DNA of 64,000 nucleotides, from positions 84,277 to 148,276 of the forward strand of contig LCET01000005.1 in assembly GCA_000995185.1 (NCBI GenBank), given 5' to 3'. The position numbers and the translations under genes are program-made. Source of the stretch: Candidatus Woesebacteria bacterium GW2011_GWC1_42_9. GTDB lineage: Bacteria > Patescibacteriota > Microgenomatia > UBA8517. The notes below the pieces were generated by a model. The model was given only the letters and a program-made list of their open reading frames with translations, was not told where the DNA came from and searched no databases. Of the stretch, positions 5,946 to 31,472 are shown one piece after another; within the stretch, counting starts at the first letter, position 1, and every line of letters begins with the position of its first letter.

Positions 5946-6878
5946 ATGCGGAAAGAAATCCTATTAGCAATCATTCTTGGCAGTGTCCTTGGCGGCGCTT
6001 TGGCTTTTGGGATCTGGAGAATGAATGATTTTTTTGACCGAAAACCAGATCAGAACGAGCCCCCACCTAGCGATCGCAAATCCCCACCCAAACAAAACAC
6101 CGGGTTTTTCCTTGAAATATCCGAGCCGGCAAACCAAGCCGTGATACCCGCCACAAGCGTCTCTGTGGAAGGCTACACTTCCCCCAATGCACTCATCACC
6201 ATTACAACTAATGATGAATCATCTCTCACTCTTTCCGATACAGAAGGCAGGTACCGCTCAGAGGCAGAACTTAGCGGGGGGGTAAACCAAATTGAAGTCA
6301 CAGGATTTGACAATAGCGGGAAATCGCTGAGCAAAAGCCTTTTATTAGTCCATTCGACGTACTTAAAAAACGGCGAACACGGGATTTCCTTAATCGGGAC
6401 AGTTACAGATTTGAGCGAATCAACAATTCAAATAAAAACTTTATCCGGAGAAATTGAACAAATTTCGGTCAACAAAGACGAAACCACCTATGCAAATATC
6501 ATGAAATCCTCTCGCGAAATTGAATTCACCGATCTTGCTCTTGGTGACTTTATTGTCGCTATCGGAAAATCAAATGGCAATGATATTATCGAAGCCCAAA
6601 GGATTTTAGTTACGACGGCTCTATCCGAATCAACCATCCGGGCAGTATGGGGAGAAGTAAAAACTTATAACACCAAAGAATTTATCATCAAGGATATTGG
6701 CGGCAATGACTGGTCCATCGACGCCAAAGGAGGAGTGGAAGTGACCAAACTAGTTGAGGATGAGTTCAAAAAGGCAAAGCTAACAAGCCTCAAAGAGGGA
6801 GATACCATCATCGTCATCGGAGAATTTGATAAAGAAGAAATCGACGCAAACCAAATCCACCTGGTTACAAATAATTGA
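5946..6878 (+). CDS. Hypothetical exported or membrane-anchored protein
   Basis: N-terminal TM helix, Pro-rich linker, then a beta-rich extracellular portion. Confidence 0.5.
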   Translation: MRKEILLAIILGSVLGGALAFGIWRMNDFFDRKPDQNEPPPSDRKSPPKQNTGFFLEISEPANQAVIPATSVSVEGYTSPNALITITTNDESSLTLSDTEGRYRSEAELSGGVNQIEVTGFDNSGKSLSKSLLLVHSTYLKNGEHGISLIGTVTDLSESTIQIKTLSGEIEQISVNKDETTYANIMKSSREIEFTDLALGDFIVAIGKSNGNDIIEAQRILVTTALSESTIRAVWGEVKTYNTKEFIIKDIGGNDWSIDAKGGVEVTKLVEDEFKKAKLTSLKEGDTIIVIGEFDKEEIDANQIHLVTNN

Positions 6879-9994: not shown

Positions 9995-11123
9995 CAGAAA
10001 GCTCAAGTGTTTCTTCACCCCTCCATAATTCCACTTCCACACTGTCGCCAACTTTCTTTTTCTTGATCGCGCTTGCCAGATTATTGTCTTCATTTAAATC
10101 TTCCCCACCAAACTTGGTAATGATGTCCCCCTCTTTTATCCCGGCCTTGTCCGCCCCGGATCCCGCGACAACAGAAGCAATGTAGGCACCCTCCGGCACC
10201 TCATTTACTATTGCGCTTCTTTTGCTTATCATCTGGTACTCCACCCCTAAAAACGGCTTTGAGGCAAAAGATCCATCCGTTTCGAAATGGTTAAGCGCTT
10301 CCTTTAGAACATTTATAGGGATGGCAAAGCCGATATTTTCTGCCCCATCGGCAATGGCCACATTTATCCCGATCACCTGCCCGGCAGAATTTAGAAGCGG
10401 CCCGCCGCTATTGCCCGGGTTTATCGCCGCATCTGTTTGAACCACATCATCTAATTCCTCGACGTATCCTTCAAAGGCGCTCCCGGCGGTTATCCCCCGG
10501 CCAAGCCCGGAAATTACTCCGGTCGTAACCGTATGCCTAAATTCTCCCAAAGCAGTCCCGATAGCCATCACATATTGCCCAACCTTCAGGTTTGAAGAAT
10601 CCCCCAACTCAACCGGTTGAAGCACTTGCCCCGCTCCCGCGAGGTCAATCTTAATTATCGCCAAATCATTTGCCGGATCGCGCTTAATATCGGTGACTTC
10701 ATACTCTTTATCATCACTCGTGATAACTTTATAAATTGCTCCTTGTACCGAAACAACGTGTTTATTTGTGACAATTAATCCATCGCGGCTAACAATAAAT
10801 CCTGACCCGATATCCTGAGGCTTTCCTCCTTCAAAACGCGAAGTAAATCCTTGAAAAAAATCAAAACCCATTACCTCTCTCTGGGGGAACTCGACAGAAA
10901 CTGTCACCACAGACGGAGAAACACGCTCGGCGATATCTATAGTCACAGACTCCTCCACCAATACTTTCTGTCCGTTTGCACCAACCGAAGTTCTCGGGAG
11001 CCAACTATCGAGGGTATCAAATCCAAAAATCCTATCCGCGATCGCTCCGCCTACCACCGAGGATACGATCACCACCCCCACCGCAAGTCCAAACATGAAA
11101 CTTCTCAAATTAAATAATTTCAT
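9969..11123 (-). CDS. HtrA/DegP-family serine protease with PDZ domain
   Basis: N-terminal TM, trypsin-like GNSGGPLLN catalytic-serine motif, C-terminal PDZ. Confidence 0.9.
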
Positions 11124-17807: not shown

Positions 17808-20534
17808 TTAATCTGTGGCCATGCTTGAACTGATACTTGCAAATTGAATAAAGATAAAAGCGAAAACAATTGCCATAACAACTGGTGCAAATTTAGCTAA
17901 ATAATCTTTCTTGCCAGGAACAAATCTCCTGAGGAGTAAGGAATTCCCAACAACCGAAATCGAAGAAAATGCCATCGCCAAACCCGCCAGCTCTGGCTTA
18001 AGAATCAACCCAAACCCTGCAAAGACTCTTGCGGCAACTGGAATGCCAATGACATTGTAGAAAAGCGCGAAAAACATGTTTTGCTTAATCTTTGACATTG
18101 TGGTGCGAGATAAATCTATCGCGCCGACAACATCTCGAAGGTCGTTTTTAATAATTACAATACCACCAGTTTCCATTGCCACATCAGTTCCGCTCCCCAT
18201 GGCTATCCCTAAATCCGCCTGAGCTAAAGCCGGGGCATCATTAATTCCATCTCCTACCATCGCCACTTTTTTCCCTTGTTCTTGCAACTTTCTAACCTCG
18301 TTTGCTTTATCTTCAGGGAGTACTTCAGCTAATACGTTTGTAACGCCAACTTGTGCAGCAATTGCCTGCGCAGTACGCTCATTGTCTCCTGTAATCATAT
18401 ATATTTGAATCCCGAGCTTAGTCAACTTTTCAATTGCTTCTTTTGTCGTGTCTTTAACAATATCAGCTACAGCAATCAACCCTAGTACTTCTTTTTTCGT
18501 GGCAAGTACCATCACTGTTTTCCCTTGGCCCTCAAGGGACTGAATCATATTCATCTGATTAAAAAGCGGTAACCCCAATGTGTCGCTTGCTAGTTTTGGC
18601 TTTCCAAAATAATACGTATTTCCATCCATCTGCCCTTCCACGCCAAATCCAGGGATTGCCTTAAAACCAATCACATCACTAAATGCTACGCCTTTTCCTG
18701 AAGCATATGCGCAAATTGCTTCCGCCAACGGATGCTCTGATTGCTTCTCCAGTGAGGCTGCAATTTCCAAAACAGCGCTGTTGCCAATAATATCCGTTAC
18801 TTCAGGTTTCCCCTTTGTAATCGTCCCCGTTTTATCAAACACAATCACATTAATCTTGTTTGCCTTTTCCAGAGGCTCTCCCCCTTTCACCAAAATCCCA
18901 TGTTCAGCTCCCTTTCCGGTCCCGACCATAATAGCGGTAGGCGTCGCAAGTCCTAAAGCACATGGACAAGCAATCACTATTACAGCTGTAAATGCCATCA
19001 GAGCAAAAGAGAGTGTTGCGCCAAATACAAAATACCAAGCGATAAAGGTCAAGACTGCTGTAACTATTACTGCGGGTACAAAATAAGCGGAAATCCGGTC
19101 CGCAATGGCCTGTATTGGAGCTTTTGATCCCTGGGCATCTTCGACTAGCTTTATTATCTGGGAAAGGGTAGTTTCTAAACCAACTCTTGTTGCAATAAAC
19201 TCAAAACTTCCAGTTTTATTTAATGTACTACCGATCACAATATCTCCTTCATTCTTCTCAACAGGCATGCTCTCTCCTGTTATCATTGATTCGTCGATCG
19301 AAGAAGAACCTTTGATAATTTTTCCATCCACCGGAACCTTTTCTCCGGGACGAACAATAACAACATCACCTTTCATCACATTCTCTAGGGGAATATCAAT
19401 CGTCACTCCATTTCTTATTATTCTTGCCGTTTTGGCTTGGAGCCCCATTAGTTTTCTTATTGACTCAGAAGTCCGGCCTTTAGCCTTTGCTTCCAACCAT
19501 TTTCCCAAAACAACAAAAGTAATTAAAAACGCAGCCGTTTCAAAATAGAGCTCAGGAATTTTGGCCCCCATAAGGCCAATTACGGAATAATTAATCGCGT
19601 AATAAGAAAAAAAATTAACAACACTATAAAAATATGCAACCGAAGTGCCAATCGCAATCAAGCTATCCATGTTGAATGTCCTCATGCGAAAGCCCGACAA
19701 AGCCCCTTTATAAAAACTAGCCCCCACAATAAACTGCACAGGTGTTGCCAAAATAAACGAAATAATTCCTACATAAGGAAGTAAAATCCCACCGAGAGGG
19801 ACACTAGAAAAGAAGTCAAAAAGCATGAAATATACCATCGGCGCACTAAAAGCAAAACTCCATAAAAATTTTCTAGACAAACCCTTAATCTGCGCCAACT
19901 GTTTCTCGGCATCTTCTTTGGTGTTTGTTGGATCTGAAACTACAGCTTTATATCCAGTTTTCTCAACGGCGTTAATTAAATCGCTCTCTTTAATTTTAAC
20001 CTGATCAAAAATCACTGTTGCTTTTTCGGCGGTGAAGTTTACTTTCGCCTCGCTTACTCCCGGAACTTTCTTCAAAGATTTCTCTATAATCCCCGCACAA
20101 GACGTACAGTGCATCCCATACAATAATAATGATGTTTTCTTCTCTCCTTCTTTATTCTCTATACCTCCTTCTTTAAGTTTTATTTCACCGTCAAACTCAA
20201 TTTCTCCCTTCTCGTTTTTTGTTATTTTTCCACTTATTCTTAAAGAGTCTTGCGCTCTAAAGATAATTTCTTGAAGTGGGCTTCTCCCATTACTATGCAA
20301 AACATTACCACTATTACTAACTATTGCTGTATAGCCTGCCTTCTTGATCGCATTTTTTATAACGTCTGTCGACAGACTTTTACTAGCCCGAAGACTACCC
20401 TTTCCTGTCTCGAAATCAACTTCTACATGCTCCACGCCATCAATTTCACCGATCTCATCGCGTATAAGCATCTCGCATGACTGACAATGCATTCCGTTAA
20501 CCTGAAACTTTATTACTCCCGCAGTTTCACTCAT
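17808..20534 (-). CDS. copA: Cu(I)-translocating P1B-type ATPase with two N-terminal HMA domains
   Basis: GMHCQSCE and [11 protein letters not shown] motifs, TM CPC ([12 protein letters not shown]), [13 protein letters not shown], and the YN...MxxSS Cu(I) signature in the last TMs. Confidence 0.9.
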
Positions 20535-20733
20535 TTACAATTTTATACAGGGTACCCGATAATACTTCATCTATGTCTTCGCTTGTGACATCCCACCCAG
20601 CAGTTACACAAACTGCTCCAGTTTTATAATTTACTTCCACAGAATCCACTCCGGGAATAGTGCCAATGCGTTTCTCAATTATTTTTTTACAAGCCGGACA
20701 ATGAGTTCCTTGAATTTTATAAACAAATGATTT
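20527..20733 (-). CDS. copZ: CopZ-like HMA copper chaperone
   Basis: [25 protein letters not shown]... Single HMA fold with a CxxC. Start taken at the internal Met. Confidence 0.8.
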
Positions 20734-20737
20734 CATA

Positions 20738-22549
20738 TTAGTTAACAGTAATGCTTCCTCGAGAAATTCCCATCGCACAAGTAATGTTATATGTACCGGT
20801 GCTACCTGGTGTAAATTCAAAGACAATCGTCTGCCCCTTAGTAAACACCTCAATTTTCTTGGTGAGACTTGGGATAGTCACACTACCCATACAGCCCTGA
20901 CCGTCATCCTTTGCCTCAATTTCAAACCGTACAGGTTGGTTAACTTTAACCGTGAATTTATTAGGAGAGATATCCCCGAGAGACGTATAAGTAGATTTCA
21001 ACACTTGAATGTTTCCTTGTGTGATGGTTTGACCAGCGGGTTGATTTGAATTCTGTGTGACTGCTGATTTAGCCCCGCATCCGCAGCCACCCCCATTTGC
21101 ACTGCACGACGAAGAAGCACTCAGCACCGTATTAGCAGCTAGAGTCGAAGGTGTAGCCACGTTTGAATTTTCATCGACCACATTAAATGAACCAGTATAC
21201 ATACCCATAGAACACGAGAAACGGATTGTGCCGGCTTGGGCGGGAGTAAATTCAAAGATGTTTTCGCCTAATTCCAGTCCTCTGCGAATACCTAATTGTT
21301 GCGATACGATGCTACTGGCGCATGAATAAATATCTTTTGAAGTAACAATCCATTTAACAGGAATGTCCTTCACAATCGTAAATTTATTTGGTGAATATCC
21401 AGATGAACTTTGTATCATCCGAACTTCTTGAACTCCATTGACAAGTTTGACATTAGGATCCTCTATGGCACTACTCGTAGAGGCGCTAATGGTAAATACT
21501 CCGAGTACTTTGGGGCTGATACCCAATAAATTTAAGCCATTTGAGACATTAAATAAAGCCAGCAAAATCACTACCACGCCAGCAGTTTTGAAAAATAGTC
21601 TTGCCCCCCGGCCCTTGACAACTGAAGTTAGTCCACCGACTCCAAGTAATCCCGGAGCAGTCCCAAGGGCAAAGACACCCATTGTTAAAGAACCTGAAAT
21701 GGGACTCCCGGTACTCATTGCATATAACTGCATTGCTTGTGTAAAGCCACAAGGTAAAAAGAAAGTCATTGCACCCATGACTACTGAATTTTTGTTACTA
21801 TATTCGCCGAAGGATTTCTTCTTAATCCCGAGCTTGCGGGATAAACTCTTAGGAAGAGTAAAAGATGCTTTTTTCAAAATAGGAAAGATGTCGATTAACT
21901 GTCCGCCAAGAAGCAGCATGACCAGCCCAACGGCAACAATCAGCATTCCCAAGACTGAAGTCGAAAGCTGAAATAATGAACCTGCAAAACCAATCAGTCC
22001 CCCAAGGGCAAAAAAGGATACGATACGTCCTAGATTAAAGAATAGATGGGGCTTAAACTTTTCCAAGGAACTGGCATAAGGGTTTTGAGCTGAGAAACGA
22101 GCGGAGGCGCCAAGCACAAGACCGCCAACTAGTGCCATGCATGTCGAAACTCCAGCGGTAAGGCCAACTAAGAAGACAATTGGCAAACTGCTAAAACTAC
22201 CAGAAATTGAGCTACTTAGGTTAAAAATTCCCAATGTCTTGGCAACTAAAAACAAAGCTGTAGCAATAAAAAAAGCAATTCCTAGATCGAGATAATCTCT
22301 ACGGTTACGGGAGAAAAAATGAATTTTCCCATCCTGGCCGATTCCATACCCTGCACTTTCTACCGCTTTTGCAACTGCACCTTCATCTAATTCACATTCA
22401 CAGTCAATGTTTGCGATGCCTGTTCGATGGTTAACAGAAACTTTTTTCACTCCCGGAACTTTCTTTAACTCATCCTCAATTAATATTTCACAAGACCGAC
22501 AGTGCATGCCCTTAATATGAATTTTTTGATTTTTCATGAATCTAAGCAT
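20738..22549 (-). CDS. HMA domain - DsbD_2/CcdA-like thiol membrane domain - two C-terminal cupredoxin-like repeats
   Basis: N-terminal GMHCRSCE. Then ~8 TMs with single Cys in helices (VSTCMALVGG, FFLPCGFTQAM). Then two ~100-aa repeats (Y/ISPNKFT... ending FSCSMGMYTGSFNVV and ITCAMGISRGSITV), separated by a Cys/Gly patch SSSCSANGGGCGCGAKS. Confidence 0.7.
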   Translation of the reverse strand: MLRFMKNQKIHIKGMHCRSCEILIEDELKKVPGVKKVSVNHRTGIANIDCECELDEGAVAKAVESAGYGIGQDGKIHFFSRNRRDYLDLGIAFFIATALFLVAKTLGIFNLSSSISGSFSSLPIVFLVGLTAGVSTCMALVGGLVLGASARFSAQNPYASSLEKFKPHLFFNLGRIVSFFALGGLIGFAGSLFQLSTSVLGMLIVAVGLVMLLLGGQLIDIFPILKKASFTLPKSLSRKLGIKKKSFGEYSNKNSVVMGAMTFFLPCGFTQAMQLYAMSTGSPISGSLTMGVFALGTAPGLLGVGGLTSVVKGRGARLFFKTAGVVVILLALFNVSNGLNLLGISPKVLGVFTISASTSSAIEDPNVKLVNGVQEVRMIQSSSGYSPNKFTIVKDIPVKWIVTSKDIYSCASSIVSQQLGIRRGLELGENIFEFTPAQAGTIRFSCSMGMYTGSFNVVDENSNVATPSTLAANTVLSASSSCSANGGGCGCGAKSAVTQNSNQPAGQTITQGNIQVLKSTYTSLGDISPNKFTVKVNQPVRFEIEAKDDGQGCMGSVTIPSLTKKIEVFTKGQTIVFEFTPGSTGTYNITCAMGISRGSITVN

Positions 22550-22587
22550 ACAAAATCACTCATTAAGATTTTATTAGGATCGCGGGG

Positions 22588-23259
22588 TCAATCTGTCCTT
22601 TCTATCACTCCATCTTTATATTCATAAACAAGCGGGTGGCCCAGAGGAAGATTTACGAAGGAAATTTTATCATCCCCAATGTTTTCTAAAAATTTAATAA
22701 CTGCTCGCAGAGTATTACCATGGCCGACAATGAGATTTGTTTCCCCGCGTTTTAACCGGGGGATGATCACTTTCTCAATATACGGGACAACTCTATCATA
22801 TACATCCTTCAGGCTTTCCCCATGAGGAGGTCTATCGAAAAAACCTCTTCTCCACTTAAGTACCTGCAATTTGCCATATATTTCCGCAACCTTTTTTTTG
22901 TTCATCCCTTGCAACGCCCCATAAGCTCGTTCATTTAGAGCTCTGTCCGTATACACATTAATAATTTTCTTGCTTAAATGAGGATTAGCATCATCAGGAA
23001 TATCGTATTTTTTATCACTTTGATGCTGAAAAACACCTATCTTATTTTGTTTAGACAGGATTACTGCCAAGGTTTCGTGTGCTCGTTTGAGATGAGAAGT
23101 AAAGATGGCATCATAGTCAAAATTTTTACAGTGCTTCGCAACTTTATGTGCTTCTCTAATACCCTTCTCCGACAGAGGTACATCTAGCCAACCGGTAAAT
23201 ATATCCAGCTCGTTAAATCTAGATTGACCATGCCTCACAATCACTAATATCCCTTTCAT
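22588..23259 (-). CDS. gpmA: 2,3-bisphosphoglycerate-dependent phosphoglycerate mutase
   Basis: RHGQSRFN phosphohistidine motif and LIVGHGNTLRAV. Confidence 0.85.
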   Translation of the reverse strand: MKGILVIVRHGQSRFNELDIFTGWLDVPLSEKGIREAHKVAKHCKNFDYDAIFTSHLKRAHETLAVILSKQNKIGVFQHQSDKKYDIPDDANPHLSKKIINVYTDRALNERAYGALQGMNKKKVAEIYGKLQVLKWRRGFFDRPPHGESLKDVYDRVVPYIEKVIIPRLKRGETNLIVGHGNTLRAVIKFLENIGDDKISFVNLPLGHPLVYEYKDGVIERTD

Positions 23260-25367
23260 ACAGAAACTAAGTCTTTTTCGGCTCTATTAAGTAAGATCGC
23301 ATTTGTCGCAACGATAATAGATGAAATACTCATGAGGAGAGCAGAAAACTCCGGCCGAAGCGTGATGCCAAAACTTGGGTACAGAACCCCTGCCGCAACT
23401 GGTATCGCTAGAAGATTGTAGACACTCGCCCACACCAGATTTTCCTTCATCTTTCGTACGGTTGCTTTTGAAAGTTTAATGGCTCTTAAAACGTCTGCCG
23501 GGTCAGACTTCATCAGTACTACTTTGGCAGTCTCAATTGCCACATCAGTTCCCGCACCAATCGCGATCCCGATATCAGCCTGCGCCAATGCCGGAGCATC
23601 ATTAACTCCGTCACCCACCATTGCAGTAAATTTACCCTCCTCTTGAAGTTTTTTGACGTATGAAGCTTTGTCTTCCGGCAGAACCTCAGAAAAAACCCTA
23701 TCAATATTGAGCTCTTTGCCAATGGCTTCAGCAGTTTTTTTATTATCACCAGTAATCATAGCCACCTCCAGCCCCAATGCTTTCATTTTGACGATAGCTT
23801 GCTTGGCATTCTCTTTGACTGGATCTAGCGCAGCCGCAACGCCAGCGATTTTATTATCAACCGCGAGTATCATGATTGTTTTGCCTTCCAAAAGCAGCCT
23901 GTCTATATCATTTTGTAGTGGAGAAATATCAACCTTCGAACTATCCATTAATTTCACAGTTCCGACAAGCACATGCCTGCCGTCGACAACTGCTTCAACA
24001 CCATGACCAGCCAGGTTTTTAAACTTCTCAACATTATTTGAAACAGAGATTTTTCTTCGTTTGGCTTCTTCTAAAACCGCCGAGCTTAAAGGATGAGAAG
24101 ACTTTTTTTCGGCCGCAGAATTAAGTTGAATAATTTGATCTTGAGTAAATCCATTAGCGGCAACTACATCGGTAATTCTAGGCTTACCTTCTGTGAGAGT
24201 TCCTGTCTTGTCCATTACTACTGCTTGTATTTTTGATACTTGCTCAAGAGTCGCAGCATCCTTAATAAGAATATTGTGTTTGGCTCCTAACCCAGTGCCT
24301 ACAGCAACAGCAGTAGGAGTAGCCAACCCTAACGCATCGGGGCAAGCTATGACCACTGTCGAGATGGCGAAGGTAAGCGCAAACAGGAGAGGTTGTCCTA
24401 GAACAAAAAACCAGACGACGAAGGTAAGTAATCCTCCACCAACAGCCACAACCACCAAATATCTGGCAAATCTGTCGGCGATTTTCTGTCCCGGAGCCTT
24501 GGAGTTCTGGGCAGTTTCTACCATTTTAACTATCTGGGCCAGTGCAGATTCTCCAGTAACAAGTGATTCATCAATGGCCGTTTCACCCTCAATGATTTCT
24601 CCATCAACCGGCACTTTATCACCAGGCTTGAGGATGAGTATGTCTCCAAGCTTCACTTCTGATGTAGATACCAAGGTCTCTTTCCCGTCCCTCCAAAGTC
24701 TTGCTTGTGGAGGAACGAGGTCAAACAACGCTTGAAGAGCATCGGTGGTTCCACGTCTTGACTTCATTTCCATCCAATGACCAAACAGGACAAAGGTCGT
24801 TAACATGGCTGCGGCTTCATAGAATGATTCCTGACTACCCAGAAGTGTTAACACCACACTAAATACATAGGCCGTGGTAATACCCACCGCAATCAGAACC
24901 GCCATATTCAGTGTCTTGGCTTGCAGGGCTTTATAGGTTGAGTATAGAAAGATCCAGCCTGAATAAAAATAAACAGGTGTAGCCAACAAAAACATGATCC
25001 AACTCGCGGGAATGGGTTCGGGGAGCCTCAAACCCAAGATGTTTGTTCCCAAAGGTGAATAAACAATAATCGGTAGGGTGAGTATGAGGGCAACAAGAAA
25101 TTTGTTGCGGATATCTTCTTCCATGAGTTTTGCCATCTCGCGCCCCGCCAGGCCCGCATGTTCCATCCCCATGGCCATAGTCATACTCATCTTAAATTTT
25201 TCCCAGAAAGACCAGCCTTCGCCAAGGCTTCGGCCGGCAAGCATTTCTTTATGACCCACTTCTTTTTCAACAGGAACCAAAGCCATGCCGCATTTAGGAC
25301 ACTCCCCAGGATTTTTCTCTTGCACTTCGGGGTGCATCGGACATGTATAATATATTGTTTCTTTCAT
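23256..25367 (-). CDS. P1B-type heavy-metal ATPase with N-terminal CPxH...CPxCG metal-binding domain, Met-rich segment and a CPD (not CPC) TM motif
   Basis: YYTCPMHPEV...PGECPKCGMAL, then MSMTMAMGMEH, IACPDALGLATP, DKTGTLT, GDGVNDAP, YN and MSISS in the last TMs. Confidence 0.85.
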   Translation of the reverse strand: MKETIYYTCPMHPEVQEKNPGECPKCGMALVPVEKEVGHKEMLAGRSLGEGWSFWEKFKMSMTMAMGMEHAGLAGREMAKLMEEDIRNKFLVALILTLPIIVYSPLGTNILGLRLPEPIPASWIMFLLATPVYFYSGWIFLYSTYKALQAKTLNMAVLIAVGITTAYVFSVVLTLLGSQESFYEAAAMLTTFVLFGHWMEMKSRRGTTDALQALFDLVPPQARLWRDGKETLVSTSEVKLGDILILKPGDKVPVDGEIIEGETAIDESLVTGESALAQIVKMVETAQNSKAPGQKIADRFARYLVVVAVGGGLLTFVVWFFVLGQPLLFALTFAISTVVIACPDALGLATPTAVAVGTGLGAKHNILIKDAATLEQVSKIQAVVMDKTGTLTEGKPRITDVVAANGFTQDQIIQLNSAAEKKSSHPLSSAVLEEAKRRKISVSNNVEKFKNLAGHGVEAVVDGRHVLVGTVKLMDSSKVDISPLQNDIDRLLLEGKTIMILAVDNKIAGVAAALDPVKENAKQAIVKMKALGLEVAMITGDNKKTAEAIGKELNIDRVFSEVLPEDKASYVKKLQEEGKFTAMVGDGVNDAPALAQADIGIAIGAGTDVAIETAKVVLMKSDPADVLRAIKLSKATVRKMKENLVWASVYNLLAIPVAAGVLYPSFGITLRPEFSALLMSISSIIVATNAILLNRAEKDLVSV

Positions 25368-25450
25368 ATATTTTATTGTAATACTTTTTTAGTAACCACA
25401 CATACAGTTGAAATTACCGCCGTCAGTTACTACAATGAGTAATAACTTTT

Positions 25451-25861
25451 GTGCTCTACACGCAGAATAAAAATTTACTTATTGCTCTTATAATTGGAGC
25501 AGTTGTTGTTGCCGGATTGAGTTGGAAAGTGCTTTCCAGTTCTAACTCTGGCGCGAGCGCGGCCAGCGAGGCAGTAACATTGACTACTGATCCTAACCCA
25601 TTACGAACTGGGCCGGCGACTCTTATTATTGATGTAAAAGACAAAGCTGGCGGATCAATTAATGATGCAACCGTATCGTTCGATCTCAATATGACCACTA
25701 TGGACATGGGGAGTCAGCGGGGTAACGCTATTTTTCAAGGTAACGGCAGATATATAGCCTCTGGAAGAATAAGTATGCGTGGCCCCTGGAAAGTGACAAT
25801 AAAAGTCACCATGCCGGACGGCGTTGTGGTCAATAAAGATTTTACTGTGAATGTTCCTTAA
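25451..25861 (+). CDS. YtkA/FixH-like exported beta-sandwich protein with Met cluster
   Basis: GTG start, N-terminal TM, ...DLNMTTMDMGSQ...MRGPWKVTIKV pattern typical of YtkA-like proteins that are often linked to copper. Confidence 0.55.
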   Translation: MLYTQNKNLLIALIIGAVVVAGLSWKVLSSSNSGASAASEAVTLTTDPNPLRTGPATLIIDVKDKAGGSINDATVSFDLNMTTMDMGSQRGNAIFQGNGRYIASGRISMRGPWKVTIKVTMPDGVVVNKDFTVNVP

Positions 25862-25910
25862 TGTTTGTGGCCGCCACTTTTCATCATCCAAAGGTGCATT
25901 AACGGGCAAG

Positions 25911-26003
25911 TCAGTAGCGGAAAATAATCACCGCTACAACTGCTAGAGCCATCAATCCTAGGCAAATACCAAACCATTTTAAGAGTGAATCATAATTATC
26001 CAT
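25911..26003 (-). CDS. Candidate 30-aa single-TM peptide (not in ORF track)
   Basis: GGAGGTG SD sits 5 nt before the ATG. Translation is MDNYDSLLKWFGICLGLMALAVVAVIIFRY. It lies 40 nt downstream of the histidine kinase on the same strand. Confidence 0.3.
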   Translation of the reverse strand: MDNYDSLLKWFGICLGLMALAVVAVIIFRY

Positions 26004-26042
26004 ATTCACCTCCATTATAAGAAAAGAAGGATTAGGAAATCA

Positions 26043-27461
26043 TTAGGAGGACATGGTGGATTTCTGAAATAGAGGCAGGATAATGGTTACTGAGGTTCCA
26101 CTTTCGACTTTACTTTTGATTTTGATCTCTCCACGATGAGCTTTAATAATTCCTTGAGAGATAGCGAGCCCTAATCCCGAGCCTAGGGTTTTTGTTGCCT
26201 TGGACCCTCTATAAAAACGCTCAAAGATATGTCCAAGCTCTTTTTTAGGAATACCAATTCCAGTATCTTTAACTTCCAGTCTCGCGTTTCCTTTCTCTTT
26301 CCGAAGCGATATAGTGACAGACCCGCCTCCAGGTGTATATTTGATCGCGTTATCAACAATATTGAGTACTGCGCGCGATATTTTATCTTCAGCACCACCA
26401 ACGACAATCCCTGGATCAATTTCACTTTCCAAAACAATGCGCTTTCGAGATGCTAGTTTGATAACAATTTCTTGAAGTTCAATCAGAGCATTTGAAAGGT
26501 CAAAATAGCCGTCGACCAACTTAGTATTTTCAGCTCCAGTCCAAGCTAAATCAAGGATATTTTTTATTATTGCCGATAGCTGATTGATATCTATAAGTGT
26601 CTCGTCAAGTGCTCTTTTATACTCCCGATTTGTCCTTTTTTTAGACATAGTTACTTCTACCCCCCCCTTAAGCGTCGCTACGGGTGTCTTTAATTCATGC
26701 GCGACATCGCCAATAAATTGTCTTTCGCGAATAAAAGCATCATTTAGATGGTCCAATAAACTGTTAAATGTTTGCGATAACTCCTCAATCTCATCTCCAG
26801 TATTAGGATTTGGGACACGCTCTTTTAGATTCTCTGCACTAATCTTCTTGAGTTGTTTTGACACTTGAGAGATAGGGCTCAATGCCTTACGAGCCAACAA
26901 AAAACCTCCAGCAACGATGATCGCAAGCAACCCAACGTACACTGAAACGAGGGTTAAAGTGAGAGTATTCAAAGATTTTTGGATAACATCCATGGGTTGA
27001 CCCATTAAGACAATCGCTTGCCGCTGATCACTGCGCTCCGCTGGAAAAATCCCGAACCGCAAAGGAGTTGTTCCAATATTTCGATTCACAAATGTTGGTC
27101 TAATTATATTTGCCGATTTTTCAAGCAAGTCGATGATATCAGACTCGTTTATCCCAAGATCATGCGAGCTATAAAGTATATCCCCATACGGATCGCCAAT
27201 AATCAAAAGCATGCCTGGCATTTCACTAAATTGTTGTGCAAATGTTTGACTACTATTGATGAATGACTGATTCATCACTGCATCTTCTTGAGTGATTATT
27301 TCAACTATTTTCTCATTGTGAGCAGTAATTGCCGAGTCGGTATGAGAGAGAAGAGATCGCTGTGTAAGGAGATAAAAGGCAATGAAAACCAATGCCATGG
27401 CGACGGAAAAAACGAGGGTACACCACATTGTTAATCTAAACCTAATGCTTTTAGTGTTCAT
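26043..27461 (-). CDS. Sensor histidine kinase (two TMs, periplasmic sensor, HAMP, HisKA, HATPase_c)
   Basis: H-box VAHELKTPVATL, plus N, G1 and G2 boxes. Confidence 0.9.
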   Translation of the reverse strand: MNTKSIRFRLTMWCTLVFSVAMALVFIAFYLLTQRSLLSHTDSAITAHNEKIVEIITQEDAVMNQSFINSSQTFAQQFSEMPGMLLIIGDPYGDILYSSHDLGINESDIIDLLEKSANIIRPTFVNRNIGTTPLRFGIFPAERSDQRQAIVLMGQPMDVIQKSLNTLTLTLVSVYVGLLAIIVAGGFLLARKALSPISQVSKQLKKISAENLKERVPNPNTGDEIEELSQTFNSLLDHLNDAFIRERQFIGDVAHELKTPVATLKGGVEVTMSKKRTNREYKRALDETLIDINQLSAIIKNILDLAWTGAENTKLVDGYFDLSNALIELQEIVIKLASRKRIVLESEIDPGIVVGGAEDKISRAVLNIVDNAIKYTPGGGSVTISLRKEKGNARLEVKDTGIGIPKKELGHIFERFYRGSKATKTLGSGLGLAISQGIIKAHRGEIKIKSKVESGTSVTIILPLFQKSTMSS

Positions 27462-27464
27462 ACT

Positions 27465-28133
27465 CTAGTCGCCGACTTTATAACCTACACCATGAATTGT
27501 CTTAATCAGATTCTTTTTAGAATCTGTGCCAATTTTCTTTCTTAAAGCTACTATAAAGACGTCCACAACATTGCTCATTCCATCAAAATTATAGTCCCAT
27601 ACGTGTTCAGTGATCATCGTTCTCGTCACCACCTCTCCTTTGTGTCTAAGCAATAGTTCTAAAACTGCAAATTCTTTAGGTGTGAGATTAATGATTTTTC
27701 CATCTCGCTTTACAACATGCTTAAGCGGATCTAGTTCTATACCATTGAGTGTAAGAACCGGAGAGATTTCTTGGTGGCTTCTTCTAATAAGCGCATGCAC
27801 CCGAGAGCGAAACTCAACAAAAGAGAATGGCTTGGTAACGTAATCATCAGCACCGCTATCAAGCCCGGAAACCTTATCTTCAGTTGTTGATTTAGCTGTA
27901 AGCATTAGGATTGGGGTTTTAATGTTTTTCTTCCGAAGCTCACGGCAAAGCTCTAAACCACTCATTTTAGGAAGCATAATGTCCAAGACAATAAGATCAT
28001 ATTGTTCACTTTCTGCTAAGTATTGTCCCTCTTCGCCATCAAAAGCCTGGTCAACTGCAAATCCATCTTCAACTAATCCCTTTTTAATAATATTCGAAAG
28101 CCGGTGTTCATCCTCAACAATCAAGACCCTCAT
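27465..28133 (-). CDS. OmpR-family response regulator
   Basis: Receiver LIVLDIMLP with the conserved Asp, and a C-terminal winged helix. Confidence 0.9.
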   Translation of the reverse strand: MRVLIVEDEHRLSNIIKKGLVEDGFAVDQAFDGEEGQYLAESEQYDLIVLDIMLPKMSGLELCRELRKKNIKTPILMLTAKSTTEDKVSGLDSGADDYVTKPFSFVEFRSRVHALIRRSHQEISPVLTLNGIELDPLKHVVKRDGKIINLTPKEFAVLELLLRHKGEVVTRTMITEHVWDYNFDGMSNVVDVFIVALRKKIGTDSKKNLIKTIHGVGYKVGD

Positions 28134-28189
28134 GGGCCTATTATATTAATAAATTATTAAAAAATCATTAAGACTTATATTTTTATTAA

Positions 28190-28459
28190 TTATCTCTTGC
28201 TGAAATAATTGTAGGACACCGCGAAAGCGTACCCGATGACCCAGGCAAAAATTACCGATGATGCCAAACCCACAGTAAATGTCCCAAGCGATAAATTCCA
28301 AGATCCAAGCCGGGTTAGTTCAATTCCATGCAACCATGACTGGCCAACCGAAAACATCAGATCAGGAAACAAACTAACTAGAATGCGACAAGCAACATAG
28401 ACAACTCCCGTCGTAGCGGCCAAAGCATTTGCTGTGGCGGTAGGGTTATTCTTCATCAT
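28190..28459 (-). CDS. Small hypothetical membrane protein (89 aa, 3 TM)
   Basis: Hydrophobic. No motif recognised. Confidence 0.4.
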   Translation of the reverse strand: MMKNNPTATANALAATTGVVYVACRILVSLFPDLMFSVGQSWLHGIELTRLGSWNLSLGTFTVGLASSVIFAWVIGYAFAVSYNYFSKR

Positions 28460-28498
28460 TTCTCACCTCCTTCTTAGATACTTTATATTTATATCACT

Positions 28499-29434
28499 TT
28501 ATACTCCACAACCACCACTTTTTTTGGGGGGCTGTTGAATAAGTCCTTTATCAGTTAACCATTGTTTAACCCTTTGCCAGCCTGAGGCAGATGAGTAATC
28601 CTTGCTCAATAAAATTTGAGCATCGATATCTTTGAAAGATTTGCCCTCTTTATTAGAAAAATAGAGTGCTATGTCATAATAGTTTCCTGGAAACCAAAAT
28701 GCATTAAAATATTTCCCGACTTCATACATTTGACTTTCGGTGGCGTCATTGCCGGCCATTAATTGAAGTACTCCTAAAAGGGCCATGCCATGGTTGCAAT
28801 CAGGGAAAGCGGTAGAATTATTGCAACAGGGTCTGAAAATATTTGAGGCGACCAGATAAACTCGCGCTTCCTGCTCTTTGGTTAGAGGAATAAGTGTGGA
28901 TTTTGAGTAATAAGTCATTGCGTCGCCCTTACCCAAGGTCCAACCGCCAGTTGAAGCAAAATTTCCGGCACCCTTTTTACCTCCATATTTCATCATGTCA
29001 CCGTCATCCAAAATCTGTGACTTGTTGGCCAAACCTACTGCCCAAAAAAAGTTTAGTAAAAAATAAGAATTATCACGGGTGATTTTAATTTTTTCGTTTG
29101 ATTCTTTGAGAAGTACCCCCTCTTGTTCTAATGTGAGGGGTTGACTCGATTTTTCATAAATAGCTTTAAACTTCTCCGGGTCAATAACCCCCATCGCTAT
29201 CATTTTAGGACCTAAGTCGCCATATGTAGCGCCAATCTCAAAACCATCCACTGGATTAATTTCGTTAAACAAAGTGTCTTTACTAGTTGCAGTCGATATG
29301 GTGGAAGTGTCCTCAGCTGTCTTGAATCTGCTCACTCTAAGTTTCATGACTTGTGGAATATAAAGTACAACTACCAATATTAAATTAGCAACTATACTAA
29401 TTATAAGGACTAACAACAGTTTATTTTTCTTCAT
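28499..29434 (-). CDS. Hypothetical Cys-rich exported protein
   Basis: N-terminal TM anchor, motif RPCCNNSTAFPDCNHG, C-terminal ...KKSGGCGV. Confidence 0.5.
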   Translation of the reverse strand: MKKNKLLLVLIISIVANLILVVVLYIPQVMKLRVSRFKTAEDTSTISTATSKDTLFNEINPVDGFEIGATYGDLGPKMIAMGVIDPEKFKAIYEKSSQPLTLEQEGVLLKESNEKIKITRDNSYFLLNFFWAVGLANKSQILDDGDMMKYGGKKGAGNFASTGGWTLGKGDAMTYYSKSTLIPLTKEQEARVYLVASNIFRPCCNNSTAFPDCNHGMALLGVLQLMAGNDATESQMYEVGKYFNAFWFPGNYYDIALYFSNKEGKSFKDIDAQILLSKDYSSASGWQRVKQWLTDKGLIQQPPKKSGGCGV

Positions 29435-30245
29435 GGCCTTTGTATTTCAACAACTTATAAAAAGTAAATAAAACAATCCCAAAAACAAACAGATCTACTA
29501 TTGGGTTTTGGAAATACTTAGCAATTTCAAAAACGATCAGGCGGATTTTTTGGCTATATAGCTCCATTTGATTCATCTGAATTTTTCCCTGAAAGTTATA
29601 CACAGCAATTAAAATCCCTGTAAAAAAGAATATTCCGGCGCCCAAATAATTCAGCACGTTATAAATCTTATGCCTATTAGGTCCAGCAATTTTTGCCGTC
29701 GCTTTTTCATAAAATATCGACATAACAAAAAGAGGCATCACGATGCCGACTACATAGGCCAAGGAAACAATTAATGCTTGGAAGAGGGAGGGCGATAAAG
29801 ATGTAAGCGTTACTGCAACAAACAATACTGGTGCACAGCAGGCTGAGGTCAAGCCAGACATAAGCCCCAGTCCAAACACGCTCGCGGCATCAACCTTCTT
29901 GCCCTGAAGGCTAGTTACATGGAATATTTGCGGCAAATGGAAGATTGGCTTAAGCGTCATAACCCCCATTAGAATCATGACTAACGCACCAAAGTAATAA
30001 ATAGCTTCGTGATAAGCATCGAAGAAAAAAATGACAGATCGAACACCTAAGGCTATCGGCACCAATACAAAAGCCAGGCCTAAGGCAAAAATAAAAGTAT
30101 AGTACATGACCCTTTTTTGCTCTCTAAAAATTGTCCCAAGATAAGAAGGAAATAGAAACGTAATGCAACACGGCGCAAATAAAGCCATTACTCCGGCCAA
30201 AAAAGAAGCGGTTAACGATATTCCGAATAGAAAATTTGAATCCAT
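29421..30245 (-). CDS. CcdA/DsbD-like thiol-disulfide membrane transporter
   Basis: Two repeats with TM Cys doublets: LFAPCCITFLFPSYL and LTSACCAPVLFV. Confidence 0.55.
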   Translation of the reverse strand: MDSNFLFGISLTASFLAGVMALFAPCCITFLFPSYLGTIFREQKRVMYYTFIFALGLAFVLVPIALGVRSVIFFFDAYHEAIYYFGALVMILMGVMTLKPIFHLPQIFHVTSLQGKKVDAASVFGLGLMSGLTSACCAPVLFVAVTLTSLSPSLFQALIVSLAYVVGIVMPLFVMSIFYEKATAKIAGPNRHKIYNVLNYLGAGIFFFTGILIAVYNFQGKIQMNQMELYSQKIRLIVFEIAKYFQNPIVDLFVFGIVLFTFYKLLKYKGHEEK

Positions 30246-30247
30246 AG

Positions 30248-30712
30248 TTATTTTACTTTTGCTTTAATACTAAAAACTAATTTCTGATTCTCCGGATCAT
30301 TGGTAATTACATATACTTCTCTCTCAACTAGTCCATACACAGGCATAGTAGCTGGTCGATAAGTAAGTCGGACTGTAGCGGTATCTCCTGGTGCAATTTC
30401 AGTCACAAACCCACTCTGCGAGTGCATACTGTACTCTTTGCTCGTTTCGCCTTTGTAAATAATTTGCCCGGTTGTACAACCACAACTTGAGTTAACGTTG
30501 AGAATTTGTAGAGGTTTCGTTCCAATATTTTTTAGAGTGTAATCTTGCTGTTTTACATCTGATACTTTAATTTCACCTATGTCAAAAAAGATCTGTGATG
30601 TTTCCGCCCTCGGACGATCAGAATCTGGTACTGAAATGTTTCTAGTAAAAGCCAATCCAGCGATGGCTCCAAATAAAAGAATAAGACTAATAATAACCGC
30701 CTTAAATGACAT
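30248..30712 (-). CDS. DUF1573-domain protein (CGC motif)
   Basis: Signal anchor then ...LKNIGTKPLQILNVNSSCGCTTGQ...IAPGDTATV..., the DUF1573 consensus. Confidence 0.75.
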   Translation of the reverse strand: MSFKAVIISLILLFGAIAGLAFTRNISVPDSDRPRAETSQIFFDIGEIKVSDVKQQDYTLKNIGTKPLQILNVNSSCGCTTGQIIYKGETSKEYSMHSQSGFVTEIAPGDTATVRLTYRPATMPVYGLVEREVYVITNDPENQKLVFSIKAKVK

Positions 30713-30740: not shown

Positions 30741-31472
30741 TTAAGATTTTATTAAGATCTGTAAATACATCACAAGAGCTCCCAAAATCACCAAAAAATA
30801 TTTTCTAATACCTGGAATCCTGCTATCCTCCTCCACCTGCGGCAAAAAGTCGCTTGCACCCAAATACAAAAATATCCCCGCCGAAATTGCCAAAAATATC
30901 CCTATCTTGTCTGGGGTATCTTTAAAATAAAAATAAACCAGGAGCGCTCCCGGAAAAGTAGCCAAAGCTGAGAATAAATTAATTAGAAATGTTCTTTGTT
31001 TTGTATACCCTGCTTTGATCAATATCCCAAAATCACCTATTTCGTGAGGTGTCTCATGTAAAAAAGTCGCAAGAGCAACCACTAATCCAAATTTAGGCTC
31101 AATCAAGTAGCTTGAGGCAATGGCGATCCCATCGATGACATTGTGGATCGTGTCCCCAACGATCACTAGAGGGATTGCCGATTCTAAATCGTTCCTCCTC
31201 CCCTCATGATGGTGTAAATGACAAAAAAACTGCTCAAACAAAAAAGAAGCAATAAATGAAACTAAAACGACCGTAAAGGCAATGTCCCCTGCCAGCTCAC
31301 TCGCCTCAGGTATCAAATTAATAATCGAAACAGATAAAAGCACCCCTGCCGCAAAAGGAACCGCGTTATGGCTTAGTGCCCTCGCCCAAGAGTTTTTGAC
31401 CAAAAAAAACACTCCGCCAATCAGCCCTGCAATACTCCCAAGCGCCGTGAGTAACAGTATTTCCACTAACAT
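30741..31472 (-). CDS. ZIP-family divalent metal transporter (ZupT-like)
   Basis: HNVIDGIAIASS and HETPHEIGDFG metal-binding TM motifs. Confidence 0.85.
   Translation of the reverse strand: MLVEILLLTALGSIAGLIGGVFFLVKNSWARALSHNAVPFAAGVLLSVSIINLIPEASELAGDIAFTVVLVSFIASFLFEQFFCHLHHHEGRRNDLESAIPLVIVGDTIHNVIDGIAIASSYLIEPKFGLVVALATFLHETPHEIGDFGILIKAGYTKQRTFLINLFSALATFPGALLVYFYFKDTPDKIGIFLAISAGIFLYLGASDFLPQVEEDSRIPGIRKYFLVILGALVMYLQILIKS

Follow-up and report, generated by a model that had tools for sequence, protein, structure and literature searches.

A copper-homeostasis gene cluster with an embedded phosphoglycerate mutase in a Candidatus Woesebacteria genome

Why is an enzyme of lower glycolysis encoded among genes for copper efflux? 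The question is raised by a gene cluster of Candidatus Woesebacteria bacterium GW2011_GWC1_42_9, a member of the candidate phyla radiation (CPR; Patescibacteria) from Rifle groundwater. We analysed a 64 kb stretch of this genome, hereafter the window, in whose numbering all gene coordinates are given; domains were assigned with Pfam and NCBIfam. The first-pass annotation had placed at 17808-28133 a copper/heavy-metal island with its own two-component system, and within it a gene for a cofactor-dependent phosphoglycerate mutase (dPGM). All eight of its genes were recovered at the coordinates and strands claimed, by open reading frame (ORF) listing and domain searches (Table 1). By exact matches of its proteins, the locus belongs to Candidatus Woesebacteria GW2011_GWB1_43_14 / GWC1_42_9. 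The presence of the dPGM had been put down tentatively either to a difference between metal-independent and metal-dependent phosphoglycerate mutases (PGMs) under copper or to simple hitch-hiking. The explanation that we prefer, and to which we give an even chance, is that the locus is a copper-homeostasis island in which the dPGM, linked to copper and independent of metal, allows lower glycolysis to be bypassed; of this explanation, we infer the induction by copper, the activity of the enzyme and the logic of the bypass. As a copper-efflux cluster, a set of two pumps with a chaperone and a two-component system is routine. What is not routine is that glycolytic enzymes (a metal-independent PGM and, in relatives, an archaeal-type glyceraldehyde-3-phosphate dehydrogenase, GAPDH) lie beside an uncharacterised pump with a CPD motif across several CPR lineages, in records named Woesebacteria, Uhrbacteria, Andersenbacteria and Doudnabacteria.

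The phosphoglycerate mutase and its linkage to copper genes

We sampled 160 dPGM homolog loci from genomes and metagenomes, clustered the dPGM sequences, and searched the loci with the window proteins plus CsoR, multicopper oxidase (MCO), YHS and other queries. In the clade of the window dPGM, 10 of the 12 informative loci, from diverged CPR bacteria, had genes for P1B ATPases, CsoR, MCO, HMA or DUF5676 proteins within 6 kb, as against copper genes at 5 of the 135 other dPGM loci (DPANN archaea, Methanosarcinales, Bacteroidales and others), a difference with a Fisher p of ~2e-10 for loci that are not phylogenetically independent. Individual look-ups placed the dPGM in copper clusters of L173 (96% identity), L171 (82%), L007 (78%), L009 (72%) and L010 (70%), with a different arrangement each time. 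Without exception, the ATPase beside the dPGM belongs to the CPD type or, at a few loci, to the CPH type with an HMBD or His-rich N-terminus; it usually lies immediately upstream. In the window, the stop codon of this first ATPase and the start codon of the dPGM overlap by 4 nt, an overlap that recurs in L010 and L173. Since the copper linkage, the CPD/CPH neighbour and the 4-nt overlap recur in diverged relatives, hitch-hiking describes the dPGM poorly. Of the two suggestions made at the outset, the evidence favours the one concerning metal-independent and metal-dependent PGMs. In the clade member L094 (Andersenbacteria), genes for a cofactor-independent PGM (iPGM) and enolase on one strand and for dPGM and a multicopper oxidase on the other lie within 6.5 kb. 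The iPGM is very common in Patescibacteria, and a second dPGM copy was found within none of the loci covered. In the literature that could be searched, we found no report of a dPGM within a copper operon or from CPR bacteria, and none of glycolytic enzymes embedded beside CPD-type pumps.

The window protein scores 187.3 bits against TIGR01258 (cutoff 81.7) and falls short of the dPGM equivalog models (e.g. NF002217, 222 vs 320). Among solved structures, it is nearest to E. coli GpmA (1E58, E 1e-43) and the S. pombe enzyme (1FZT), and alignment to 1E58 shows all catalytic and substrate-binding residues to be kept (R9-H10-G11, N16, R59, E110, K121, R137-R138 and H180-G181-N182). It is thus predicted to be a genuine short-type dPGM. 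About 440 homologs were found at E <= 1e-10, and the few with names are Patescibacteria. The protein ends ...ERTD, about 10 residues short of the EGxYxFxRPLR C-terminus of the family (gene end at 22588-22600), and its closest copper-linked relatives have degenerate tails without RPLR. A His-Cys dyad occupies residues 43-44 in the two CPR dPGM clusters (Cys in 30/30, His in 27/30), where 132 other family members have Lys, Glu or Gln followed by Leu or Ile. Clade members that lack copper neighbours share the dyad, so it is not specific to copper loci.

In yeast dPGM, removal of the C-terminal tail abolishes the mutase activity and spares the phosphatase activity. The missing tail therefore invites a non-glycolytic explanation, in which this His_Phos_1 protein would either act as a phosphatase or team up with the P-type pump or the two-component system, hydrolysing for example a phosphometabolite or a phospho-protein. 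Such a role would explain the translational coupling of the dPGM to the ATPase, and the clade-specific dyad could be counted in its favour, as could distant dPGM homologs of other lineages that lie on the same strand as, and directly beside, MgtA-like P-type ATPases (L115 7566-10872 and L118 7479-10663). However, every catalytic and phosphoglycerate-binding residue is retained, the dyad also occurs away from copper genes, and the naturally tail-less S. pombe protein, which we take to be an active mutase, is among the closest structures; moreover, the GAPDH genes embedded in related clusters point to glycolysis rather than to pump regulation. We consider this explanation highly doubtful. As a separate observation, distant dPGM homologs in L123 and L125 are convergent with genes for H+-ATPase-like pumps.

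The GAPDH genes extend the association beyond a single enzyme. In L007 (10946-11980) and L171 (5368-6405), the dPGM gene is followed by one for a type II (archaeal-type) phosphorylating GAPDH, with ~440 bits against NF003251 and the catalytic motif SCNT. Homologs of this GAPDH at 86, 79, 72 and 54% identity (L174, L175, L176 and L177, respectively; gene at 10001 or 8001) all lie beside a P1B ATPase gene, with varying CsoR, YHS, MCO, DsbA or Lycopene_cyc genes alongside, so that the type II GAPDH neighbours a P1B ATPase of a copper cluster in all six CPR loci examined. For four of the six, the stretch covered has no called dPGM gene. A membrane protein with a Lycopene_cyc domain is encoded in five of the six (all except L176); in the window, homologs of neither the GAPDH nor the Lycopene_cyc protein were found. 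The adjacency of dPGM and GAPDH in L007 and L171 resembles a remnant glycolytic pair and gives some weight to a housekeeping explanation, according to which the dPGM, and the GAPDH of the relatives, would be the cell's sole such enzyme and would sit in a metal cluster for historical reasons, with no copper-specific role. Small CPR genomes with mixed operons offer a route, e.g. the accretion of copper genes around an old gap-gpm pair, and for DPANN archaea, Methanosarcinales and Bacteroidales, in which the dPGM family lies away from copper genes, it presumably supplies the ordinary PGM. Yet the linkage outlasts extensive rearrangement of the copper genes, at dPGM identities down to ~54%; the neighbour is specifically a CPD or CPH ATPase, often in overlapping or near-abutting frames; GAPDH alone and dPGM alone are each found in copper clusters; and L094 has its separate iPGM-enolase pair. 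We regard the housekeeping explanation as unlikely on this balance.

The bypass that we prefer builds on at least three transcription units. A CopRS-like two-component system, autoregulated via TTAAT repeats, would form the first unit. In the second, behind a repeat box of its own, a 603-aa membrane protein, CopZ and CopA would bind cytoplasmic Cu(I) and pump it out. The third would consist of the CPD-type, P1B-3-like ATPase translationally coupled to the dPGM, which would be an integral, selected component of this type of island. Copper stress would be expected to disable two enzymes, the Mn-dependent iPGM through mis-metallation and GAPDH through its catalytic Cys; if a metal-independent PGM is co-expressed with the pump, lower glycolysis could continue, and relatives have the type II GAPDH in addition. 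In these fermentative CPR bacteria, ATP is believed to come largely from glycolysis, with its lower part as the main source. Co-expression of PGM and pump would make sense because glycolysis supplies the ATP that the pump consumes. For the second target there is a precedent in Staphylococcus aureus, where GAPDH is the specific, and main, target under copper stress (PMC6350627). If the bypass is real, it is a natural example of metal resistance by replacement of a vulnerable enzyme, beyond removal of the metal, and it offers a testable handle on the targets of copper toxicity in uncultivated bacteria. A bolder version would make the tail-less dPGM, together with the GAPDH of the relatives, a dedicated target-bypass or pump-partner module of CPD-type ATPases and, in its strongest form, would have the His_Phos_1 protein act directly with the pump and not in bulk glycolysis. 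We see little chance of this; if true, it would introduce a principle of resistance that has not been described for metals, whereby an island carries the replacement or partner enzymes for a poisoned pathway.

The pumps, the CupA-type domains and two deletions

The metal specificity of the locus is indicated by CopA. It carries CPC in transmembrane segment (TM) 4, N-x6-YN-x4-P in TM5 and M-x2-SS (MAFSS) in TM6, i.e. the full P1B-1 Cu(I) signature, as well as the DKTGT phosphorylation site and the TGES actuator motif within its E1-E2_ATPase and Hydrolase domains. Two N-terminal HMA domains have CxxC motifs (GMHCQSC and GMHCTSC), and the match to TIGR01511 reaches 629 bits (cutoff 397). Its predicted identity is that of a P1B-1 Cu(I)-exporting ATPase. 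The first ATPase also exceeds the TIGR01511 cutoff of 397, with 513 bits, and differs in its motifs: TM4 has CPD (ACPDALGLATP) rather than CPC or CPH, as it does in 10 related loci, and TM5 (VYNLLAIP, YN-x4-P) and TM6 (MSISS) lie between the P1B-1 and P1B-3 forms. The N-terminus holds an HMBD (PF19335, E 1.2e-13) and a Met/His-rich stretch, MSMTMAMGMEH, and is not His-rich in the P1B-3 style. By comparison of motifs, the protein has the CPD-type P1B-3b signature, i.e. CPD, YN(X)4P and MSxSS with few N-terminal His. This subtype had been noted only once, in Rhizobiales, as an atypical P1B-3 group (clade VIc) with no functional data (PMC5552934). Through these clusters, CPD-type ATPases appear as a coherent, widespread subtype that deserves characterisation.

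The 603-aa membrane protein adds a further copper feature. Its residues 367-459 align to Streptococcus pneumoniae CupA (4F2E/2MRY, E 3e-11) and to the cupredoxin-like metal-binding domain of the CopA of that species (4F2F); the first domain has the Cys and the C-x-M-x-M (CSMGM) in register with the CupA structures, and the second has C-x-M-x-I, a partial match to the Cu(I) motif. A blue-copper electron-carrier identity for these Cupredoxin_1 domains was considered and is ruled out, since they lack the His ligands and carry the CupA-type C-x-M-x-M. The protein also has an N-terminal HMA domain (CxxC) and a DsbD_2/UreH-like core of ~7 TM segments by hydropathy, two of which contain Cys; from this topology, the HMA and CupA-type domains would face opposite sides of the membrane. 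Homologues occur in the copper clusters L010, L012, L018 and L128.

These features support the initial view of the locus as a module for copper sensing and efflux: besides the Cu(I) signature of CopA and the CupA-type domains, CopZ has its CxxC and the regulator and kinase have heavy-metal systems as their best matches, albeit below the trusted cutoffs. Assignment of the ATPases to Zn/Cd/Co transport had been named as the finding that would undo this view, and it fails since neither pump shows signatures for these metals (no HEGxT or SPC) and copper models score highest for both. A service to another metal (Ag, Zn, Cd or Hg), or the delivery of copper to exported cuproenzymes in place of detoxification, can still draw on several features: the Asp of CPD is a harder ligand than Cys or His in an uncharacterised subtype, NCBIfam Cd/Zn models likewise exceed their cutoffs, the HMA and MerT/MerP-like matches are generic, and multicopper oxidases in related clusters could be metallated by some of the pumps. 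Against a complete P1B-1 signature in CopA, the ranking of the models, the C-x-M-x-M domains, the lack of Zn-type motifs and the CsoR, YHS and MCO genes of related clusters, we hold this explanation to be very improbable.

Two genes of the window carry deletions. In the first ATPase, a clean 99-nt in-frame deletion at the junction 24546/24547 removes 33 aa (LPVAKNIGDQ...KVGQDT) directly after TGES, with a microhomology of 2 nt only. Six other assemblies have the full 736-aa protein at a locus that is otherwise 99.6-100% identical, whereas the window form has 703 aa and, as it stands, an incomplete actuator domain; an exact look-up of the 703-aa protein gave no record in the sequence collection. 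The deletion may be a strain variant or an artefact of assembly or curation. The window copy of the CPD ATPase is probably inactive because its actuator domain is partly deleted. A 34-nt deletion in the DUF2933 gene, 3' of the kinase gene, causes a frameshift and splits the gene over two frames in the window and in L001 and L002. It is intact in the 96% relative L173 (59 aa) and in L010, whose orthologue matches PF11666; the window DUF2933 gene is a pseudogene.

Regulation, extent and origin of the island

The regulator and kinase have TIGR01387 and TIGR01386 as their best matches, with 252.8 and 252.3 bits, respectively, below the trusted cutoffs of 279.2 and 292.55. The kinase has TM segments at residues 14-32 and 171-189 with a ~138-aa loop outside, in which the match to the CusS sensor domain is weak (E 5.5e-4). 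An orthologue of the regulator, 72% identical, is encoded in the L010 copper cluster. By the order of transcription, both genes lie upstream of the rest of the block and not downstream as had been described.

A search for direct repeats had been suggested at two places, 25368-25450 and 28134-28189, and repeats were found in the second of these. Box 1 (TTAATGA-N4-TTAATAA-N4-TTAATAT) has an 11-bp period and runs into a TATAAT that ends 6 nt 5' of the regulator ATG. A second box (CTAATAA-N4-TTAATGA) lies inside the block, between the dPGM and the 603-aa gene, and is conserved in L173. A degenerate pattern of these boxes has two matches only in 64 kb, against 0.08 expected; the count is not an independent test because the boxes themselves had served, post hoc, to define the pattern. 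L010 gives independent support: the same motif lies there 5' of the regulator gene, of the CPD-ATPase-dPGM unit and of the CopA operon. The window sites and the three L010 promoters provide, on sequence, candidate direct-repeat operators of a CopRS/CusRS-type system, and the two-component system is probably autoregulated through the 11-bp-period TTAAT repeats.

No regulator-type direct repeats were found at 25368-25450, 5' of the first ATPase; apart from the inverted repeat TAGTAAC/GTTACTA, the interval holds only a single half-site (ATTGTAGTA, 25426-25436). The half-site resembles palindromes (TACTACA-N3-TGTAGTA) beside BlaI/CopY-like genes in L010 and L175. Palindromes of the form CTACTACA-N3-TGTAGTAG were observed beside genes for a BlaI/CopY-like repressor and an M56 peptidase at positions 6237 and 7679 of L010 and 5024 of L175. 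A search of the window for CsoR, BlaI/CopY and M56 homologs found none. A promoter-like site for the YtkA gene lies at 25408-25436; the sigma-70 promoter and terminator scan, whose counts were not above those of shuffled sequences, was used solely for this candidate.

The block had been described as one continuous run on the minus strand. The tight packing is real: 3 nt separate the regulator and kinase genes and 1 nt the 603-aa gene and copZ, and copZ and copA overlap by 8 nt. Nevertheless, the block comprises at least three transcription units, since boxes precede the regulator gene and the 603-aa gene and none precedes the first ATPase. The true start of copZ is the ATG at 20736, giving 69 aa in agreement with the calls in other assemblies; a 108-aa ORF from a TTG was dropped as it runs into the preceding gene. 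In each of the three units, the leading gene lacks a Shine-Dalgarno sequence and is preceded, 6-8 nt from its start codon, by a -10-like hexamer (28134-28145, 25368-25385 and 22550-22560), which suggests leaderless transcripts; at least one gene that heads none of these units, DUF5676, has GGAGG.

Table 1. Genes and regulatory sites of the copper island in window coordinates.
Feature	Position	Strand	Domains and remarks
OmpR/PhoB-type response regulator, CopR/CusR-like	27465..28133	-	Pfam Response_reg + Trans_reg_C
Sensor histidine kinase	26043..27461	-	HAMP-HisKA-HATPase_c; extracytoplasmic loop between two TM segments
DUF2933 small membrane protein remnant, frameshifted	25858..26003	-	C-terminal motif CPLMHLWMM...H.H
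YtkA-like protein, membrane-anchored or exported	25451..25861	+	PF13115, E 2.7e-9; N-terminal TM segment
P1B-3-like heavy-metal ATPase (first ATPase)	23256..25367	-	HMBD + E1-E2_ATPase + Hydrolase
dPGM	22588..23259	-	His_Phos_1; TIGR01258
603-aa membrane protein	20738..22549	-	HMA + DsbD_2 + 2x Cupredoxin_1
CopZ-type HMA metallochaperone, 69 aa	20527..20736	-	PF00403; motif GTHCPAC (CxxC)
CopA, P1B-1 Cu(I) ATPase	17808..20534	-	2x HMA + ATPase domains
DUF5676 two-TM protein, probable island member outside the earlier range	28190..28459	-	PF18926
Gene trio, probable island members	28499..30712	-	311-aa Cys-motif protein; 274-aa CC-motif polytopic protein; DUF1573 with CGC
ZIP-family metal transporter, heads the upstream run; membership uncertain	30741..31472	-	PF02535
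Regulator box 1	28145..28171	-	three direct repeats
Regulator box 2	22551..22577	-	two repeats, 5' of the 603-aa gene

The island probably does not end where it had been taken to. The range 17808-28133 had been called self-contained; however, the DUF5676 gene and the trio behind it (28190-30712) recur with such clusters elsewhere. DUF5676 recurs beside dPGM or copper genes in L007, L009, L010 (twice), L091 and L174, and homologues of the 311-aa, CC-motif and DUF1573 proteins are encoded together beside kinase/regulator or CsoR genes in L007, L009, L174, L175 and L176. The 311-aa protein is membrane-anchored, with CCNNSTAFPDCNHG and a C-terminal GGCGV, and the polytopic 274-aa protein has two CC motifs within TM segments; neither gave a match in Pfam. 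Because of this recurrence, the functional island probably extends past 28133 and reaches ~30712, or 31472 if the ZIP gene is included. ZIP transporters were also observed in Woesearchaeota-type loci, L028, L104, L110, L111 (~125 nt from the dPGM) and L054, where the dPGM lies tail-to-tail with one. The YtkA gene is divergent from the first ATPase, as described, and recurs in the copper clusters L010, L173 and L175; its product, reported as Met-rich, is merely modestly so. The flanking genes are housekeeping genes (rpsF, ssb, ychF, cysS and recR), and an Rfam search of 15-33 kb of the window gave no match.

GC and tetranucleotide profiles, which had been suggested as a check, give the block no distinct signature (z scores of 0.9-1.8, not outliers), and neither a tRNA nor an integrase was found at its borders. 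In composition and flanks, the block therefore lacks the marks of a horizontally acquired genomic island. No close relative without the block was found, so the choice between core and accessory rests on gene order and flanks. Relatives hold the same genes in differing order and with differing flanks, and some of their clusters adjoin mobile-element genes (recombinase, prim-pol and toxin-antitoxin), which argues for mosaic, accessory evolution rather than conserved core synteny. In L092 (2044-6455), a clade dPGM lies at a contig edge beside a large serine recombinase and a primase-like gene, which hints that some of these clusters lie on mobile elements.

Several of these results weigh against the bypass. 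The sequence of this genome gives no evident sign that copper controls the ATPase-dPGM unit: the window repeat box is 3' of the dPGM, although in L010 one does precede the ATPase-dPGM unit. Copper as the substrate of the CPD-type pump is unproven by its motifs, and the loss of the tail could alter the activity of the dPGM. The Fisher test overstates the significance of the linkage because its loci are not independent, and the clade members L011 and L013 have no copper neighbours. An iPGM of the window's own genome was not among the best 120 matches to the L094 iPGM, a list saturated by closer relatives. The unit without a preceding regulator box and the native-like composition of the block are, moreover, what the housekeeping explanation would lead one to expect.

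Comparison with known copper systems

The regulatory part of the island is closest to CusRS/CopRS. As in those systems, an OmpR-family regulator is paired with a kinase that has a periplasmic loop, the best NCBIfam matches are TIGR01387 and TIGR01386, and target promoters, the system's own included, have direct repeats across their -35 region. It differs in scoring below the trusted cutoffs, and its box (TTAATGA-N4-TTAAT) is unlike what we take to be the proteobacterial CusR/CopR box. The cop operon of S. pneumoniae (CopY-CupA-CopA) likewise has, next to a P1B-1 CopA, a Cu(I) protein of cupredoxin fold that bears Cys and C-x-M-x-M. In the window, however, the CupA-type domains number two and share one polypeptide with an HMA domain and a core of ~7 TM segments, and regulation is by a two-component system, with no CopY or CsoR homolog.

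Two P-type copper pumps and a CopZ at one locus are also known from copYZAB of Enterococcus hirae, and the second pump of the window shares its TM5 and TM6 motifs (YN-x4-P and MSxSS) with CopB and other P1B-3 ATPases. In contrast to these, it has CPD and not CPH, an HMBD with a Met/His stretch in place of a His-rich tail, and translational coupling to a dPGM. The P1B-3b ATPases of Rhizobiales (PMC5552934) bear the same signature in a different phylum; the likeness between the two groups is one of motifs.

For the dPGM itself, the nearest parallel to the role proposed here is found in S. aureus, where a metal-independent dPGM coexists with a Mn-dependent iPGM and is deployed under metal stress, with GpmA as the metal-independent backup for the Mn-dependent GpmI (PMC6684088). 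Under copper stress in S. aureus, three proteins, GpmA among them, rose along with CopZ at both doses of copper in one of the growth media (PMC6350627). The two cases nonetheless differ. The main documented role of GpmA is under Mn starvation, and the passages considered of the copper study do not describe gpmA as part of the copAZ operon (PMC6350627), whereas the dPGM gene of these CPR bacteria is physically embedded among copper-efflux genes and is, in places, translationally coupled to them.

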